A stretch of 64,000 nucleotides of DNA from an uncultured delta proteobacterium (lineage in GTDB: Bacteria > Desulfobacterota > Syntrophia > Syntrophales > UBA2185), in NCBI GenBank assembly GCA_963695875.1, contig CAVOID010000015.1, forward strand, positions 14,291 to 78,290, read 5' to 3'. Of this stretch, positions 2,067-44,241 are shown piece after piece. A program made the position numbers and the translations under genes. Each line of letters opens with the position of its first letter. Within the stretch, counting starts at the first letter, position 1. The notes beneath the pieces were generated by a model. That model made no database searches and was not told where the DNA came from. It worked only from the letters and a program-made list of their open reading frames with translations.

Positions 2067-3653
2067 ATGAAGAAAGTTCTCGTGAGTGACACCCTGGCGG
2101 TAGAGGGTATACAAATATTGAAGAACGCACCCGGTATTGAGGTAGACGTGATGACAAACCTTACGCCGGACGAACTCAAAGGCGTCATCAAGGACTACGA
2201 TGGTCTGGCCATAAGGAGCGCGACCAAGGTCACCAAAGGAAATTATCGACCATGCAGAGAAACTTACCGTGATCGGCCGAGCGGGGATCGGCCTTGATAA
2301 TGTGGACATCGCCGCAGCAAGCAAACGGGGCATCGTGTGCATGAATACTCCTGGCGGCAATACTATCACTACAGGTGAACATACCATTGCCATGATGTTT
2401 GCGCTTGCGAGAAAGGTACCCCAGGCCACTGCATCCATGAAGGCAGGCAAGTGGGAAAAGAACAAATTTATGGGCGCGGAGCTCTACAACAAGACCCTCG
2501 GAATTATTGGTATCGGGCGGGTCGGCACCATTGTGGCCGACAGGGCGCAGGGTTTAAAGATGAACGTTATCGCCTATGACCCTTTTATCTCCCCGGAGGC
2601 AGCCGGAAAATTGGGGATCTCCCTCGTCACACTGGACGAACTGCTGCAAAAATCCGACTTTATCTCCGTACACACGCCGATGACAAAAGAAACGAAAGGA
2701 ATGATTAATGCAAAAGCCTTTGACAAAATGAAGAAAGGGTGTCTTCATCATCAATTGTGCCCGCGGAGGAATCATCAGCGAAAAAGACCTTTATGACGCC
2801 CTCAAATCGGGAAAAGTTGCCGGTGCCGCCCTCGACGTTTTTGAAGAAGAACCAACGAAGAATACGGAACTTATCTCCCTCAATAACGTGATCTGCACGC
2901 CTCATTTAGGTGCGTCAACAGACGAAGCACAGATCAATGTGGCCATAGCTATCGCGGAGCAGATCGTAAACTTTCTTACAAAAGGGAGAAATCAAGAATG
3001 CCGTTAATTTCCCCTCTGTCAGTGCCGAATTACTGACTGTCATCCAGCCGTTTCTGGATCTCGCAGAGAAGCTGGGGAAATTCGAGGCACAAGTTGTCAA
3101 AGGCGCTATCAAGGAAATCACCGTCGAGTATAGCGGGGAAATCCTGAACTATAACGTAGCTCCGATCACTATTTCTCTGATAAAAGGACTGCTAACACCA
3201 ATCCTCAATGAGAATGTTAATTACATCAATGCACCTGTCGTTGCCAAAGAACGCGGCATTAGGGTTGTTGAGTCGAAGAGCAGCGAGGCGAAGGATTACA
3301 CAAGCATGATATCACTGACCATAAAGACCTCGGAAGAGACAAGCTACGCCGCAGGCACCATTTTTGGTCGCCAAGATTCACGTATCGTCAGAGTTAACAA
3401 ATTCACCGTCGAGGTCATCCCAGAGGGTCACATGCTGGTTATATCCAACTACGACAAACCCGGTGTAATAGGCAATCTTGGCACAACTTTGGGAAGCAAC
3501 AGCGTCAATATCGCGAGACTCCATCTTAGCAGGGAACAGGTCGACAAAATGGCATTAGTTGTCCTGACGACAGATACAATGGTAGCGGAAGATGTGATCG
3601 GAAAGCTCCGAAGTCTGCCCAACATCATATCGGTCACCCAACTTGAGATGTAG
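2067..3653 (+). CDS. serA: D-3-phosphoglycerate dehydrogenase with C-terminal ACT domain, split by three 1-nt insertions (about 2238, 2737-2739, 2984-2986)
   Basis: Four ORF pieces join into a continuous SerA: ...SATKVTK|[23 protein letters not shown]..., ...DKMKKG|[21 protein letters not shown]..., ...NFLTKG|[11 protein letters not shown]..., through to the ACT-like tail [19 protein letters not shown]. Each break is an extra G after an A-run. Confidence 0.9.
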
Positions 3654-4967
<1,314 letters not shown>

Positions 4968-21281: not shown

Positions 21282-22208
21282 ATGAACGAGAACGAGAGCG
21301 GGAAAAAGGGACTTACGGGGAGCAGAGTTTTCGGGCAATTGCCCAAAGAGAAGTGGGATGAGCTCACTAGGGCTATGGAGAACCAGGTGGTAGCACGGCG
21401 TACGATCATCTTCAGGCAGGGGGATCCAGGGGACAAGTTTTACATTATCCATTCAGGGAAAGTGAGGGTGTTCAGGAAGGACGCTGATGGATTGGAGACG
21501 GACTTGTCTTTGCTGGGAGCGGGTGAAAGCTTTGGTGAGATGGCCCTGCTGACAGGTGAGACGAGATCAGCGAACGTGGAGGCGGTAGAAGAGACCCGCC
21601 TAAAGGTGCTTTCCAAAGAGCAATTTGAGCTTATTCTGAAGGACTTTCCCCATATTTCCCTGGCCTTTGTGAAGCAGATGTCGGGATGGCTTCTGAGGGA
21701 TGAGAAGACCATTGAGAAGGAAGCGCAACAACTTTACCGGGCACATCACATATCCTGGTTTGATTTTCTGCTGGTGATCGGGGTGAGTGTAATTCTAGCC
21801 CTCGTGTTCAATAAGTCTAACCCGAACGGGATACCCCTGTTTCCGAAGTTTCCTGACAGGAAAGCGATTTCCGAGATCAGCGCTGCTCAGGCGATGGAAG
21901 AGGTGAAGAAGGGCGAAGCGCTCATCGTGGATGCTGGTCCTGAAGCCTTCTATGAAAAGAAACATATCCAGGGGGCGATCAGCATACCGCTCTCTCTTTT
22001 TGATATAGTGTATACGATGGCCTTTGGAGGGAATGAGAAGGGGAAAAAGGTGATTGTGTACGGAGGAACATTCAGCAAGCTCTATGATTGGGAGCTGGCG
22101 GACAAGCTCCTTCTTCGGGGGCATAAGGATGTGAAGGTGTTGGAGGGGGGGATGGCGACCTGGGAAAAAAAGGGCTATCCGGTGGAGGAGGAGAAAGGGA
22201 AGGAATGA
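21282..22208 (+). CDS. Cyclic-nucleotide-binding domain / TM helix / rhodanese-like domain protein (rhodanese lacks the catalytic Cys)
   Basis: cNMP-binding region reads [23 protein letters not shown]...[25 protein letters not shown] helix [20 protein letters not shown]. Rhodanese fold reads [24 protein letters not shown]...[10 protein letters not shown]...[15 protein letters not shown]. Confidence 0.8.
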
Positions 22209-22708
22209 TCCATACATTTCTAAAACAGATTGTGACGAGTCCGTATCTGGCGCTGATTCTGAGGGTGTTCGTGGGCTATATCTTTCTGTACGCTAGCGTG
22301 AGCAAGATACCGCACCCTGCGCAGTTTGCGGAAGCGACGGCAGCCTATCAACTGATCCCGTACTGGTTTCTGAATGTGGGGGCTATACTATTGCCGTGGA
22401 TCGAGTTTGTGAGCGGGCTGTTTCTGATCATCGGGCTGAGGACGAGGGCGGCGGCAACCCTCATCGGTCTGATGTTGATCATGTTCACCGTGATGGTCCT
22501 GACCAACATGTACTGGGGAGCGTCTATTACGTGTGGGTGTTATGATACGGTGGGGGAGCCTATTGGGTGGAAGAAGGTCAGTGAGGACATATTACTGCTC
22601 CTCTTCACGATACAGATTTACTTCTGTGACAGGTTGTTCATCTTCCGCAGGGGGGGCTTAATGCCCAGCATAAAGGGCATGGTCGCTACTCTGACAGGAT
22701 TGCAATAA
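22205..22708 (+). CDS. MauE/DoxX-family membrane protein
   Basis: Four predicted TM helices and the motif [12 protein letters not shown]. The start overlaps the upstream stop by 4 nt. Confidence 0.7.
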
Positions 22709-22716
22709 GGTGGCCT

Positions 22717-23082
22717 ATGATGCACACATCAAGATTTCAGGATTATGGATTGATGGTTGGTCTTTGCGTGCTTCTGATGCTTCTGCTCTCATGTGAGTCC
22801 AAGGATAAATACGCGGGAGTATACAAAGCGGTGGGGAATGAGTCGGTGAAGCAGGGGGAGACCGTCTTGGAATTGAAGGGGAATGGGGATGGTCTGTGGA
22901 GAGTGGCCTCTGATGAGGTAGCGGGAACCTTCGTAGAGGTCCCCTTTGTGTGGTACATCAAGCAGGGGGAGTTGCGGGTGAACACCAGAGCAGGGGGAGT
23001 GATTGTGGGGAAGATAGGGAAGGACACCATTCAGATGACCCTCCCAGGCTCCAAAGTGATGACCTTCAAGAAGATCCAATAA
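22717..23082 (+). CDS. Small lipoprotein, unknown function
   Basis: Lipobox LLLSC after a hydrophobic signal. 121 aa, 8 nt after the MauE stop. Confidence 0.5.
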   Translation: MMHTSRFQDYGLMVGLCVLLMLLLSCESKDKYAGVYKAVGNESVKQGETVLELKGNGDGLWRVASDEVAGTFVEVPFVWYIKQGELRVNTRAGGVIVGKIGKDTIQMTLPGSKVMTFKKIQ

Positions 23083-23108
23083 GTCCAGAGGTCGAATCTC
23101 GGAAGCAG

Positions 23109-23537
23109 CTATCTATTCCCATTGGGTTCGACTGGATACTTCGCTACCTCCCAGGCCCTCCATCCGCCCTTCAATGCGTATATCTTCTTGTATCCTTTCT
23201 CCATGAACTGCAGTGCCGCACGGGCACTGGTCGCTTCATCGTGTCACTTACAATAAAAAACTAATGTTTTCTCTTTTGGATACTTGTTGATCCAGGAGGT
23301 AAGATAGCGGACGTCCTCGTGAACAGCCCCCTTGATCTTGTTCTTGCTGTTCTCCCAGTCGTGGACCGTCCTCACATCGATAACGATGACATCGGGATTC
23401 ACAAGCTGCGCTTTCAGCCCATCAATAGACATCTTCTGCACACTCTCGGGGGTGAGCTCCGTCGCGGCGAAACTAACCGTTCCCGCGAAACCCACCGCAA
23501 GCACCATCAAGGCCAGAAAGAATACTGTTTTTCTCAT
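23109..23537 (-). CDS. Exported single-domain rhodanese, candidate selenoprotein (UGA at 23244-23246 read as Sec, motif CKU)
   Basis: ORF 23244-23537 ends ...TLVFYCK at TGA. The same frame continues HDEATSARAALQFMEKGYKKIYALKGGWRAWEVAKYPVEPNGNR to TAG 23109-23111, giving a complete rhodanese. The TGA sits at the catalytic-Cys position and a hairpin follows 14 nt downstream. Confidence 0.75.
23211..23229 (-). promoter_or_regulatory. Putative bacterial SECIS hairpin (mRNA CAGUGCC-CGUGC-GGCACUG)
   Basis: 7-bp stem with a 5-nt loop, starting 14 nt 3' of the in-frame UGA. Nearly identical in the paralog at 25931-25945. Confidence 0.55.
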
Positions 23538-23565
23538 TTATCCCTCCTTTTGCGCCGGTCAATTG

Positions 23566-23760
23566 TTAAGGGTTACTTCTTAAGTCTCTTCTCATATTTT
23601 TTGGAAGGTCATTTATGGCTACTGTAAGTAAATCGGCTGGGTTCTTGTCATGCTCAACGGCAACAAATCTTAGTTTCTTTATAAACGTGCTAATCAAGAC
23701 GAAATGATACCACTTTTCAGATAGTCTTGAGCGTGTATTAATCACCCCGCATCGCTTCAA
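23566..23760 (-). CDS. Hypothetical small protein between the two UGA-containing genes (TTG start)
   Basis: 64-aa ORF filling the gap 23763 to 23537. No recognisable motif. Confidence 0.2.
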   Translation of the reverse strand: MKRCGVINTRSRLSEKWYHFVLISTFIKKLRFVAVEHDKNPADLLTVAINDLPKNMRRDLRSNP

Positions 23761-23762
23761 GA

Positions 23763-24074
23763 TTACTGGATGATCTGCGGTTTCCCTTCGATCGGGAATT
23801 CTTGCTTGGCCAGACCCTCTACAATCTTCTCGATACTGGTTTTTGCATCGTCGAATTTTACCGTGACTTCGTGAGTTAATTGGTTCGCATCATATTGCAG
23901 CACGCCCGGGATTTCCTTCAGGGTAGCACGTACCCATTTAGCCGAGTCCGGTCACTCACATCCGGGAACTACCATTTTGACAATTCTTTCGGCAGCAAAA
24001 ATGGGTTGTGATGCGACGAGCAGGAACATCACACTCAAAAGACAGACGATCAGGGAATGTTTACTCCGCTTCAT
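23763..24074 (-). CDS. Exported HMA (heavy-metal-associated)-like protein, candidate selenoprotein (UGA at 23952-23954, motif GCEU)
   Basis: Not in the ORF track because it is split by TGA. Translation: MKRSKHSLIVCLLSVMFLLVASQPIFAA-ERIVKMVVPGCE-U-PDSAKWVRATLKEIPGVLQYDANQLTHEVTVKFDDAKTSIEKIVEGLAKQEFPIEGKPQIIQ*. SD GAGGGG. U aligns with the first Cys of the HMA GMxCxxC loop. Hairpin 16 nt downstream. Confidence 0.65.
23921..23935 (-). promoter_or_regulatory. Putative SECIS hairpin (mRNA GGGUA-CGUGC-UACCC)
   Basis: 5-bp stem with the same CGUGC loop as the rhodanese hairpins, 16 nt 3' of the UGA. Confidence 0.45.
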
Positions 24075-24693
24075 GGGTATTCCCCTCAATATTTTTGGGT
24101 TAGATTATACGGATGCCTCTTTCTAAGAGATGGGTCTTCTATACATAGTTTACATTTTTTATTTCTCAAACAAATTGGTTAAATCGGATAGAAGGGTTAA
24201 GTGGATAAGATATAAATGAACGAATATAATTTTATACTTATGTGAATTTATATAGTGATTCTTCTTCTATGTCAAGCTAATTTTGTCACTAAATATGTCC
24301 GGTATAGCTGTCGATTTCCACGAGTATGCTTGTGAGAGTTTTTCGATGATCGCTGGTAGATATCAGAAGGTCAAGCATTTGTATGAATTTCTCCCCGGTC
24401 TCATGATCTCTAAAAACATAGGGAGAATTCCGTTCTCTAAACTATATGTGCCAACAGAGTAGAAGATTACCGTTAAAAACATTCACTTTCACTGCCCACG
24501 TTATGGTACCTCATAAAAAATAAATCATGCCCCTTCTCTCTTTCAAAAATTACTCTCCGGTGGATGGAAGGATGCTCATATTGGGCAAAAGTCATATCTG
24601 GCAAAGATCAGGACGCATATTTTTTACAGCGAGCAAGGCTCCTCCATGCAGCCGGAAAAAGAAAATGATCAAAGAACCAGATGACCAAATAAC

Positions 24694-25197
24694 CTATTTG
24701 GCAGAACGCACCGGGAGAACCCGGCTGCTGATGACGTACGACTGGGGATTCCAACTCCGTTCGCCGTACCGGAAATTGAAGACGGCGGCGGCGGAATCGC
24801 GCGTCGCCGAGTTCCATAACCAAAAACAGGTAATATCTATCAACTCCGTTGCGATATGAATATTATAGCTTCGATTGCATGCTCCTGGACGGGATTTACT
24901 CGCATCATACAGCCCCATCAATTCATCCTGCGTTGGCATCCGCCAGTCCGTATAGCCGCCGCCGCGATAATTCTCGCAATAACTCTTGGCATCCGCCCAG
25001 TTTATGTTGCGTTCATTGTCCTTTGCCGCCCACATTAGGTTCGTCTGTGTGTCCAGGACCGTCCCATCATCATAGGCGATGAAACGACCGTCTCTGGCGA
25101 TCTCTCCGGCTGCGGCATATTCTGCAAAAACAAAAGTACCTATATAAAAAACCAACACCATTGCCGCAATGAAAAAGCCCTTTCTCAAGTCAGTCAT
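24694..25197 (-). CDS. DUF1566 (Lcl C-terminal-like) domain protein, membrane-anchored/exported
   Basis: Matches TNLMWAAKDNERNINWADAKSYCENYRGGGYTDWRMPTQDELMGLY. ATG 25197 has SD GAGGTGA; the ORF track start 25212 is 5 codons upstream. Confidence 0.7.
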   Translation of the reverse strand: MTDLRKGFFIAAMVLVFYIGTFVFAEYAAAGEIARDGRFIAYDDGTVLDTQTNLMWAAKDNERNINWADAKSYCENYRGGGYTDWRMPTQDELMGLYDASKSRPGACNRSYNIHIATELIDITCFWLWNSATRDSAAAVFNFRYGERSWNPQSYVISSRVLPVRSAK

Positions 25198-25281
25198 ACG
25201 TTCACCTCTCATAATTCTAATCTCTAGGGGTTAAATTTCCCTAAGCTTACTTCGCTCGTAAAGGACCCGAACCTTCAGATA

Positions 25282-25302
25282 CCCCGCAGCTTGCTGCCAG
25301 GG
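25282..25302. repeat. REP-like hairpin, copy 2 (CCCCGCAGCTTGCTGCCAGGG)
   Basis: Same GC-clamped AGC-TTGC-TGC palindrome core as 14031-14050, 56517-56536 and 56585-56604. Confidence 0.45.
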
Positions 25303-25835
25303 TAGTTCATTTTGTTTTTTCCACTAACCGCTTGGCTTTCCGGCGTTGCCACAGTATTTCAACGATGTATCCGTAGGCTCCAGCCACTCACAAAAATTGA
25401 CGGATGATTAAGACACAAAACCCCGCTCTCGCTTGAGAAACGGGGTTTCGATAAGCTCTTCATGGCACCACCCTTACAAAAAGGGTTCAGACTAGTTGTT
25501 AACCTTTTGACGATGCCCTATTTAAATATGATTATTTTTTGCTCTCAATTCTTTGAAAAGTCAAGAGACAAATTTCATTGATAATCATTTGAAAGGATGT
25601 ATATCTATCAAAACCACGGGACACTGCCTTCACCCTCAGAATCTATTATCCATGAGACCTAACGATTACCATTGTAAGAATCAATATTTCCCTAACATTA
25701 ATGGTTAGGAGGAAGTAGCGGATTATCGCTGTCACCCGAGAGCTGTGCAGATCAATTTGAAAGCGATTATCATGACAAGTCGCTAAGACGAAAAATCAAA
25801 AAACCTATTACCGAGGTTACAATAAGAAAATTAAT

Positions 25836-26267
25836 TTATTTAGGTTCGATTGGATACCCCGCATCCGTCCAGGCATGAAAACCACGCTTGAGGGCGCTTA
25901 CCTTTTTAAAGCCATTGTCCAATAATATCTGTGCCGCACGGGCACTTGTCGCTTCATCGTGTCAGGTACAGTATGTAATGATCTCTTTGTCCCTCGGCAG
26001 TTCGTTGCTTCTGACCTCCAGTTGAACTATGGGAATCCTGATGGCCCCTCTTATCCTGATCTTGCTATCGGCATATTCTCGTCCCGCTCGGACATCAACA
26101 ATCACTATGTCCTCACCTTTATCCATCTTAGCCTTCAGTTCCTGCACTGTGATTCTTGGAACTACATCGTCTGCAGATAAAACAACCGATACGATCAGCT
26201 GATTCAGTACACCGAAGAGCAGAGAAAGAAAGAGACCCTTTAAAAACCATCTCATCGCCATCCTCAT
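25836..26267 (-). CDS. Exported single-domain rhodanese paralog, candidate selenoprotein (UGA at 25962-25964, motif CTU)
   Basis: ORF 25962-26267 ends ...EIITYCT at TGA. The frame continues HDEATSARAAQILLDNGFKKVSALKRGFHAWTDAGYPIEPK to TAA 25836-25838. The 31 nt after the UGA differ from the 23.2-kb paralog at one position. Confidence 0.75.
25931..25945 (-). promoter_or_regulatory. Putative SECIS hairpin (mRNA GUGCC-CGUGC-GGCAC)
   Basis: Stem-loop 16 nt 3' of the in-frame UGA. The sequence is conserved with 23211-23229. Confidence 0.5.
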
Positions 26268-26399
26268 CTCATCCTTCCGGGGTAAAATGCTTCTTAATTG
26301 CTGTGTCTAAAACTTACTGAATAACAAGTCGAGATCCAGACTTTATTATAATGCATTAAGCCAGCTCAAAAATTGGGTGGGTCGTGGGTTGCTTGTTTA

Positions 26400-26885
26400 T
26401 TATTCCTTTTTTACTGAACGGGGGAAACAGCATTCCCAACTTGGCATACCATCTTCCTCGTTGCGAAGTTTCATGGTGAAATCACCCTTGCTTATTTCCG
26501 TGGCAATGATCGCATTACCATACTTCTTACCCCTTACTTCAACCTTGTCGCCGGCCATAAATTTGATCTTCTGATTTTCAATGAACCACTTGGGTCCCAT
26601 ATAGACGACATACTTGTTATTCTGATCCGTAATGAATCTCATCTGCAGACCGTCTTTCACACCTTTCATCGGCTCAACTCTCGTTACTTTACCGGGCTCC
26701 ACCACTATTGCTTCCATTCCCGTAAATGATGTCTCGGCATCAAGTCCGGGAACTCCCAAAGTCCATGCACCCCTTGATACAGGGCCCGAGGACTGAGATG
26801 CCTGAGCAAACAGCTCTGGTGCGAAAGTCATGCTCACCAAGAACATCATTGCAACTACAACCGTCCAACGTGCTACCTTTCTCAT
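26400..26885 (-). CDS. Exported protein of unknown function (upstream of rhodanese paralog 2)
   Basis: SD GGAGG before ATG 26885. Signal peptide MRKVARWTVVVAMMFLVSMTFAPELFAQA. The C-terminus reads ...PSWECCFPRS. Confidence 0.5.
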   Translation of the reverse strand: MRKVARWTVVVAMMFLVSMTFAPELFAQASQSSGPVSRGAWTLGVPGLDAETSFTGMEAIVVEPGKVTRVEPMKGVKDGLQMRFITDQNNKYVVYMGPKWFIENQKIKFMAGDKVEVRGKKYGNAIIATEISKGDFTMKLRNEEDGMPSWECCFPRSVKKE

Positions 26886-27320
26886 ACTTTCCTCCTTGGT
26901 ATCATTGTTTTGACCCACCCGATTTCGAGCTTAACGATTTAAAAAATGAACCTTCCATACCTCGTGACATCATCTTGTATCCCCTATGGGGTGATGATCC
27001 TGTCCAACACTCTGTTCTTTTTTGCGCAATCTGCAGGGATGGCTCCGGTACAAATAATATCTTTTGACTGCTATTAGTGTCAATCTCTAAATGCTGCATC
27101 ATGCAACAGTTTATAATCAGGTATAGACTGATTTGTGGCTTCGAAATTCCTGCAGTAATCGCCCAATGTTGCATACAGGAACGGAAAAGCCCGAAGCGAT
27201 TGAGTTGGCAAAATTGGCTTCGGGCTTCTCTGGAAACGACCGGCCTCAAAGAAGGAGGAGGCATGAAAACAAAATATATTTTAATTATAAGCCTTTAGAA
27301 AGAGTCAGTCAATCCTTTTT

Positions 27321-43091: not shown

Positions 43092-44241
43092 TTATCGCAT
43101 GCCTAAGAGCTTTCTCGAGATAACTACTCTCTGAATCTCGTTCGTGCCTTCATAAATCTGGCAGATCTTTGCATCCCGCATGTGCCTTTCGGCCGGATAC
43201 TCTTTGGTGTAACCGTAACCGCCGAATATCTGCACACCTTCAACGGATGCTCTCATCGCGACATCGGACGCATAACACTTTGCCATCGCCGATTCCTTCT
43301 CGTAATCAAGGTGATTATCCTCCATCCACGCGGCGCGAAGGAGCATCAGCTCCGCTGCATCAAGCTCCATTGCCATATCGGCAAACTTGAACTGGATTGC
43401 CTGGAAGGTCGAAATCGGCTTACCGAACTGCACTCTTTCTTTTGCATAAGCGAGGGCATCTTCCAGAGCGGCCCGACCGATACCGCAGGCCTGGGAACCT
43501 ATTCCGATCCTTCCCGCATCGAGCCCCATCATCATCTGCTTGAAACCCTGGCCCGGCTTACCGAGGAGATTTGCCGCCGGTATCTCGGCATCCTCAAAGA
43601 CCAGTTCCGCCGTTCCGGACGCCAGGATTCCCATCTTCTCCTCGATCTTTCCTACTTTAAAACCAGGGGTGTTCTTCATGTCCACGATGAGATTGATGAC
43701 CCCCTTGTATCCTAATGCAGGATCTGTCGTGACAGCCAAAACGCAGTAATGGGCTACATTGCCGTTCGTTATGAAGATTTTGGTCCCGTTGACAATATAT
43801 TTGTCCCCCTTCAATACGGCCCGGCACTTGAGCGCAGCGGCATCCGAACCGGCGCTGGGTTCCGTTAAGCCATAGCAGCCTTCAACCTTTCCGCTTGCCA
43901 CCGGCGTCAGGAACTTCTTCTTCTGCTCTTCCGTACCAAACGTCAAGACCGGATATCCGTACAGTGAATTGTTGACGGAGACAATGACGCCACAGCTTCG
44001 CGCAGGCCTTGGAAATCTCAATCATGCACAGAACATATGTCACTACATTCATGCCCGCCCCGCCGTATTCCTGCGGTACGGCGACGCCCATGATTCCCAT
44101 CTCGCCCAGTTTGCGGCAGATCTCTTCCGGATGCCTGTGGGTTTTGTCCAGATCTGCGGCGATCGGTTTAATCTCCTGCTCCGCAAACTTTCTTACCATA
44201 TCTCGCACATCTCGCTGATCTTCTGTCAATCCAAAATTCAT
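43092..44241 (-). CDS. Short-chain (butyryl-CoA-type) acyl-CoA dehydrogenase; 1-nt insertion near 43997
   Basis: ORFs 43882-44241 and 43092-44021 join as ...MIEISKACA|SCGVIVSVNNSLYGYPV. The C-terminus reads QIYEGTNEIQRVVISRKLL. Confidence 0.85.

Follow-up and report, generated by a model that had tools for sequence, protein, structure and literature searches.

Reviews list one rhodanese family as a predicted prokaryotic selenoprotein with a CxU motif, in which U stands for selenocysteine (Sec), and trace it to the bSECISearch paper (Zhang and Gladyshev 2005; PMC13188914, PMC9312934); in one of them it appears as "COG0607 form 2 (CxU)" (PMC9312934). The same family is curated in NCBIfam as NF041203, "rhodanese_LYCAU, rhodanese-related (seleno)protein", with an equivalog cut-off of 115 bits. 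The present analysis concerns a gene at 25836–26267 on the minus strand of a 64,000-nucleotide (nt) stretch of contig CAVOID010000015.1 from an uncultured delta proteobacterium of the Syntrophales, referred to below in its entirety as the window. This gene (paralog 2) and a second one close by (paralog 1) score 123.7 and 160.9 bits on NF041203 when Cys is put in place of U, and the window thus adds two members to a selenoprotein family that is already known and curated, though still only predicted.

We consider it highly probable, at roughly 0.9, that 25836–26267 carries a Sec-encoding UGA and a bacterial Sec insertion sequence (SECIS) within the gene of a putatively exported CxU rhodanese. 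The basis of this reading is membership in NF041203, a conserved TGA, a downstream frame under selection, homologs with Cys at the same column, and a hairpin that displays both constraint and covariation.

The UGA codon and the frame beyond it

The open reading frame (ORF) of paralog 2 starts at 26267 on the minus strand, runs to ...PRDKEIITYCT and meets TGA at 25962–25964, beyond which the frame continues as HDEATSARAAQILLDNGFKKVSALKRGFHAWTDAGYPIEPK until it is closed by TAA at 25836–25838. Read through, the complete gene has 143 codons with the proposed Sec codon at position 102, in the motif Y-C-T-U. The position of the UGA, the end of the ORF and the open frame downstream all agree in coordinates and sequence with the original prediction for this locus. 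With Cys substituted for the stop, the Pfam rhodanese domain PF00581 matches residues 40–135 at 58.3 bits and so spans the TGA. A charge and hydropathy heuristic places a putative signal peptide of the general secretory (Sec-pathway) type at residues 1–32 (26172–26267, minus strand), ending ...VVLSA before DD: three Lys or Arg lie within residues 1–10, hydropathy in a 15-residue window peaks at 2.33 over residues 16–30, and past residue 35 it does not exceed 0.65.

A homolog search among GTDB species representatives with a single protein as query turned up 17 further genomes, spread over at least two phyla, in which this same codon is TGA. These comprise metagenome-assembled genomes (MAGs) of Syntrophales/Syntrophaceae, other "Deltaproteobacteria" MAGs and two Anaerolineae MAGs; 19 genes were aligned, all 19 with TGA in this column, and later additions brought the number to 21. 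A separate 4.7-kb contig from JGI (L081) encodes an identical 101-residue product whose gene call ends at the same point. Because this contig and the 17 other genomes have TGA at the same position, the codon is not an assembly error. The motif YC[T]-TGA is found in 16 of the 17 other genomes, the exception being a Syntrophaceae UBA10514 contig (L008, DNUI01000220.1), in which the upstream Cys codon is itself TGA at about 3220–3228 (TAT TGA ACC TGA, Y-U?-T-U); a UxU variant, a mutation and an assembly error are all conceivable.

Both Anaerolineae MAGs have a second TGA copy less than about 1 kb from the first (L016, 3265 and 3661; L017, 1653 and 2427), and duplicates in which each copy has TGA and the hairpin described below also occur on two contigs of a single MAG (L006 and L007). 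Since such duplicates recur in other genomes, paralogy of the Sec-rhodanese is common.

The frame beyond the TGA was examined in 16 deltaproteobacterial genes, that of the window and 15 others. It is exactly 41 codons long in every one of them and ends at a homologous ...YP.EPK, and over post-UGA codons 15–41, which lie downstream of the hairpin, the ratio of non-synonymous to synonymous differences (pN/pS) is 0.23, a mark of purifying selection. Seven of the 16 genes have a second TGA as their true stop, and TGA is thus both recoded and used for termination within one gene. The codon likewise ends 25 of the 61 long ORFs in the window, among them purA, meaB and the genes for an enoyl-CoA hydratase and a 3-hydroxybutyryl-CoA dehydrogenase, where profile matches reach to within a few residues of the C-terminus. 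Full-length homologs with a sense codon at the Sec column have Cys there, in the form YCAC (P0078, P0083–P0088, P0110), and one of these Cys forms (P0078) reaches 117.7 bits on NF041203, above the cut-off. An open and selected frame, TGA stops elsewhere and Cys homologs together exclude, for practical purposes, that the gene is a pseudogene, that the TGA is a sequencing error or that UGA is reassigned throughout the genome. The view that neither a chance stop nor a sequencing error was likely, put forward from two genes, is now borne out by the other genomes and the JGI contig.

Most database entries for the family stop at 97–101 residues. Some metagenome gene calls give W at the Sec codon (P0002, P0121–P0128, P0138), apparently under an alternative genetic code, and the simplest account of the W is an artefact of gene calling. 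Together with the truncations this amounts to systematic misannotation, here and in the HMA-like family described below. Public gene calls, for this gene as for most of its relatives, either end at the UGA or supply Trp, so that databases lack the catalytic loop and the protein's last third or give them wrongly; a pipeline in which NF041203 is applied should already be capable of putting the annotation right. More distant Anaerolineales homologs (P0115–P0119) break off at ...EIITYCARC, just where the active-site loop lies, and may represent another in-frame-stop variant (C-A-R-C, then stop).

The hairpin and the other UGA genes

The bacterial SECIS candidate lies at 25920–25959 on the minus strand. 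RNAfold gives a 5-bp upper helix, GUGCC at 25941–25945 with GGCAC at 25931–25935, which begins 16 nt after the UGA and closes the loop CGUGC at 25936–25940, and a lower helix of CGAUGA (25954–25959) with UUAUUG (25920–25925).

The evidence for this structure comes from an alignment (A2) of 19 sequences covering TGA and the following 60 nt. In the upper helix 94.7% of alignment cells pair, and one pair changes from U-A to C-G in six sequences; because the two bases are the third positions of a Ser (AGU/AGC) and an Ala (GCA/GCG) codon, two synonymous sites covary. For the lower helix (columns 6–11 with 40–45) the paired fraction of cells is 83%, and four of its six pairs show compensatory changes. 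Over the whole structure 88.5% of cells pair, compared with 25–63% when the 3' partners are shifted by one to three columns. An alternative lower stem suggested by paralog 1 (columns 8–12 with 40–44) paired in 60% of cells, like the shifted controls, and was rejected.

Constraint on the hairpin is also evident at the level of codons. The four-fold third positions of hairpin codons 7–9 (GCC, CGU/GGU, GCG/GUG) are invariant in all 19 sequences, whereas Ala, Thr and Gly codons just outside the hairpin show all four bases at their four-fold sites. Where amino acids do change within the hairpin (R to G, A to V and, in orthologs of paralog 1, R to S), only outer loop bases are hit, and the GUG core and the stem are kept. 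The invariant four-fold sites and the covarying synonymous pair uphold the earlier proposal of a SECIS-like constraint on the RNA.

That proposal had been made from the comparison of paralog 2 with paralog 1, which occupies 23109–23537 on the minus strand (PF00581, 54.9 bits). Paralog 1 reads ...TLVFYCK, then TGA at 23244–23246 in the motif Y-C-K-U, then HDEATSARAALQF... (in a fuller stretch, HDEATSARAALQFMEKGYKK...), with its hairpin GUGCC-CGUGC-GGCAC at 23213–23227; its orthologs in two other genomes (L082 and L085, 81% and 79% protein identity) have the TGA and the hairpin as well. As predicted, the second rhodanese shares the in-frame UGA and a near-identical block: the 31 nt past the TGA, CACGATGAAGCGAC[A/C]AGTGCCCGTGCGGCAC, are identical at 30 positions, the difference being ACA against ACC. 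The two genes are as divergent elsewhere as had been claimed, at 38% protein identity and about 49% DNA identity outside the block (183 of 372 nt), with 39 of 90 nt matching upstream of the TGA and 57 of 92 nt after the block. The codon-aware comparison that had been proposed was carried out, and among columns with the same amino acid in both paralogs the codons are identical at 9 of 10 inside the block and 16 of 38 outside it (Fisher p = 0.011). The identity of the block is beyond chance. One element of the original claim needs amending: conservation was said to be confined to the hairpin, and the hairpin is indeed conserved, but conservation extends over the 16-nt spacer too, which forms the 5' arm of the covarying lower stem.

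In the mechanism we propose, the mRNA past the UGA would fold into a 6-bp lower stem, an internal loop and the 5-bp upper stem GUGCC/GGCAC, with the loop C-GUG-C starting 21 nt after the UGA. SelB carrying Sec-tRNA(Sec) would bind this hairpin while the ribosome stands on the UGA, and Sec would be inserted in place of termination. The predicted product is a single-domain rhodanese of about 143 residues that would be exported, with Sec most likely at the position of the catalytic Cys of a six-residue active-site loop (U-HDEAT-S). In alignments to solved structures U falls without gaps on the catalytic Cys of 1yt8 domain 2 and of both 6mxv domains, which make up three of the four domain alignments that include the catalytic Cys. 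Cys-100, at position -2 (CxU), is a potential resolving partner with which Sec could be joined in a selenenylsulfide.

A read-through scan of the window produced 87 ORF pairs, of which only the two rhodaneses and one further gene look coding on both sides. This third candidate, at 23763–24074 on the minus strand between the two rhodanese paralogs, would encode an exported CxU protein with an HMA/MerP-like domain; its UGA at 23952–23954 lies in VVPGCE-U-PDSAKW... (motif G-C-E-U-P), and its hairpin GGGUA-CGUGC-UACCC at 23921–23935 differs from that of the rhodaneses in the stem and is the same in the CGUGC loop and the 16-nt spacing. The structural motif "TGA, 14–19 nt, 5-bp stem, [C/G]GUG[C/U] loop" occurs three times on the two strands of the window as against 0.3 times in shuffled sequence, and all three matches have a 16-nt spacer and sit at the three in-frame TGAs. 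In five Syntrophales orthologs of the HMA-like gene both TGA and hairpin are retained, with U-A changed to U·G, and a Cys-form homolog (TGT, motif CAC) has no hairpin.

A covariance model (R1) was built on 18 rhodanese elements including that of paralog 2. Its only matches in the window are the two rhodanese sites, with E = 4e-14 and 1e-11, a result given by construction; the score of 68.3 bits for the paralog 2 element is similarly expected of a sequence in the training set. Trained on rhodaneses only, R1 misses the HMA-like hairpin at E <= 10 because the stem positions of the model are nearly invariant in sequence, and support for that hairpin consequently comes from the motif scan and the orthologs. 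No NCBIfam model scores the HMA-like protein above its cut-off, the one for the UxxU metal-binding selenoprotein (NF041115) giving 21.8 bits against 95, and the protein may be an uncatalogued CxU form.

Weighing the reading against its rivals

Several observations weigh against Sec decoding at 25962–25964. Taken by itself the fold of paralog 2 is no more stable than those of shuffled sequences (z = -0.24), and that of paralog 1 has z = -1.75; since single-sequence stability is not significant the case for a SECIS has to be comparative. Within that comparison covariation in the upper stem is limited to one pair; the remaining three of the 4-bp core do not vary and hence carry no information, and in 4 of the 19 sequences the outermost G-C is not paired. 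Rfam scans, at the gathering threshold over the whole window and at E <= 10 over 22900–26400, returned no SECIS or other relevant match. The fourth domain alignment, to 6pfz, puts the upstream Cys rather than U at the catalytic position by means of a 2-residue gap. The family has the standing of a prediction in both reviews (PMC13188914, PMC9312934), and no report of selenium incorporation into any of its members was found in the literature examined.

No tRNA-Sec, selA, selB or selD was detected in the 64-kb window or in any examined locus: ARAGORN found no tRNA-Sec in the window and 17 loci, NCBIfam models identified no Sec machinery among 20 large window ORFs, and tblastn with E. coli SelA, SelB and SelD as queries had no match in the window or in 87 loci. 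Support for a working Sec system in the source organism is indirect, and comes from a recoding signal conserved across genomes, from three UGA-plus-hairpin genes in one locus and from the large selenoproteome of Syntrophus aciditrophicus. This species is a cultured relative within the Syntrophales. Its selenoproteins number 19 (PMC1794560).

The lack of machinery in the available sequence, together with the gene calls that end most database proteins at 97–101 residues, would suit a TGA that is a genuine stop, in which case the gene would be a decaying pseudogene or would encode a 101-residue N-terminal fragment, with the downstream frame open by chance. The uniform 41 codons, their homologous end and the pN/pS of 0.23 make this very improbable, and it is further opposed by the conservation of the hairpin at synonymous sites and by the truncated product itself, which would have neither the active-site loop nor the final third of the Pfam domain. 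Less probable still is a UGA that encodes a standard amino acid, Trp or Gly as under genetic codes 4 and 25, or that is passed by unspecific read-through, with no Sec involved. The entries with W at this codon (P0002, P0121–P0128) speak for such decoding, but homologs carry Cys at the column and not Trp or Gly, seven orthologs have TGA both internally and as a true stop, and a reassignment across the whole genome is ruled out by the stop-codon usage of the window, well-matched housekeeping genes included. Selenocysteine accordingly remains much the preferred assignment.

A different kind of alternative is aimed only at the earlier two-copy argument and is compatible with a SECIS, namely that the near-identity of the 31-nt block is mainly the outcome of recent short-tract gene conversion, or concerted evolution, in this genome and not of constraint on the RNA. 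We regard this as a serious contender, rated a little short of even. Over TGA and block (34 nt) the window copies match at 33 positions, as against 26–29 when these two lineages are compared in other genomes. There are five block positions at which paralog 1 departs from its orthologs (CAC-GAT in place of CTG-AAT, and loop C..C in place of A..U; window 23213–23246 against L082 3389–3422 and L085 3802–3835), and at all five it agrees with paralog 2; the GAT (Asp) codon common to both window copies is absent from their closest orthologs, and the 16-nt spacer varies freely among orthologs. On the other hand, the single mismatch (ACC against ACA) falls inside the supposed tract and keeps the ancestral paralog 1 state, so that the tract would have to be patchy or to have mutated afterwards, and adaptation of the two elements, each on its own, to one shared SelB offers an alternative route to identity. 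The block is moreover the best-conserved segment between paralogs in every genome examined (26–29 of 34 nt, compared with 42–53% in the flanks), from which it follows that constraint alone accounts for most of the identity. Block identity was originally taken as a sign of RNA constraint; this holds for the hairpin core, which is constrained, and is to be qualified for the near-perfect match of the window copies, to which gene conversion or co-adaptation probably adds.

Neighbouring genes and comparison with known systems

Upstream of paralog 2, across a 132-nt gap, lies a gene for a putatively exported MamS/MamX-like protein with the C-terminus W-E-C-C-F-P (26400–26918, minus strand; Pfam MamS_MamX, assigned on the identical neighbour in the JGI contig), and the two are probably in one operon. 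The MamS/MamX-like gene is directly upstream of the paralog 2 ortholog and on the same strand in all ten Syntrophales loci compared (L001–L010). The C-terminus ...MKLRNEEDG.P.WECCFP, with its vicinal cysteines, is invariant in the ten full copies (window, L001–L006 and L008–L010). In L082 a 32-residue piece resembling the N-terminus of paralog 2 follows a MamS/MamX-like gene (4330–4425) and may be a remnant of a lost paralog 2 copy.

All four small proteins of the cluster carry positive charge at the N-terminus, then a hydrophobic stretch some 20 residues long and a short c-region, which ends ...LSA in paralog 2 and ...SFA in paralog 1. By this heuristic profile they have putative signal peptides and are consistent with export by the Sec pathway.

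The HMA-like gene and paralog 1 are convergent with a three-gene unit at 21282–23082 on the plus strand, which encodes three proteins: one with cNMP-binding and rhodanese domains, the latter lacking Cys at its catalytic-loop position, a membrane protein of the MauE/DoxX type and a small, putatively exported one. The same convergent arrangement is found in two other Syntrophales genomes, L082 (4510–5869) and L085 (3971–5768), and its recurrence suggests a functional module. One could go further and propose an undescribed, conserved periplasmic selenol/thiol module of the Syntrophales, made up of the two CxU Sec-rhodaneses, the HMA/MerP-like CxU protein, the WECCFP protein, the MauE/DoxX protein and the cNMP-binding/rhodanese protein, in which MauE/DoxX would recycle selenenylsulfide or persulfide carriers for the handling of sulfur, selenium or metal(loid)s; we offer this as a speculation that is unlikely to be right. 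The loose precedent for this role involves SseA, a sulfurtransferase of the rhodanese family. In mycobacteria the membrane protein DoxX is complexed with SseA, described as a predicted thiol oxidoreductase (PMC6930017).

The rest of the window holds purA, PAS kinases, a two-partner secretion system, a CHAT-domain protein, pfk, methylmalonyl-CoA mutase with MeaB, beta-oxidation genes, motAB and cheA, and is the ordinary chromosome of a Syntrophales-like anaerobe. At 43092–44241 on the minus strand an acyl-CoA dehydrogenase is seemingly split over two frames, its N-terminal part (43657–44241) overlapping the ORF at 43092–44021, which may reflect a frameshift, a pseudogene or an assembly error.

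On these predictions three or more putatively exported CxU selenoproteins would be encoded within 3.2 kb in an uncultured Syntrophales-like organism. The HMA-like CxU protein and the conserved neighbourhood may deserve follow-up; the rhodanese finding in itself does not.

Compared with described bacterial SECIS elements, the candidate is likewise a stem-loop directly 3' of the UGA and within the coding region, with a small apical loop containing G (PMC9312934, PMC1088965). It has a 5-nt NGUGN loop, a 5-bp G+C-rich stem and an 8/5-nt internal loop above a weak lower stem, and provides a family-level description of the SECIS as UGA, N16, 5-bp stem and NGUGN loop. The distance of 21 nt from UGA to loop is within the 16–37 nt that the bSECISearch model allows. 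The elements of E. coli fdhF and fdnG are the archetype of the bacterial SECIS, and to these the window element is unrelated in sequence.

With NF041203 both window proteins share the single rhodanese domain, the Y-C-x-U motif and a score above the equivalog cut-off, and the family itself unites Sec and Cys forms. There is no essential difference, except that paralog 2, with T at x, stands nearer to the family edge than paralog 1 and has a conserved partner gene of its own in the MamS/MamX-like WECCFP protein. TsoB (NF045694), a selenoprotein resembling a rhodanese/DsbD fusion, also bears Sec on a rhodanese domain, but has a UxxxxU motif and another architecture, and the window match to it is weak and partial (32.5 bits against a cut-off of 805). 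Two single-domain E. coli enzymes with Cys, GlpE and PspE, and the 6mxv and 1yt8 domains have the PF00581 fold in common with the window protein; GlpE and the solved domains likewise have the six-residue active-site loop past the catalytic residue and the S-x-x-A-A helix start after that loop. PspE is also periplasmic. The window rhodanese differs from these Cys enzymes in its predicted Sec at the catalytic position, an extra Cys at -2, a putative N-terminal signal peptide and an acidic loop (HDEAT) without the Arg that is usual in Cys rhodaneses.

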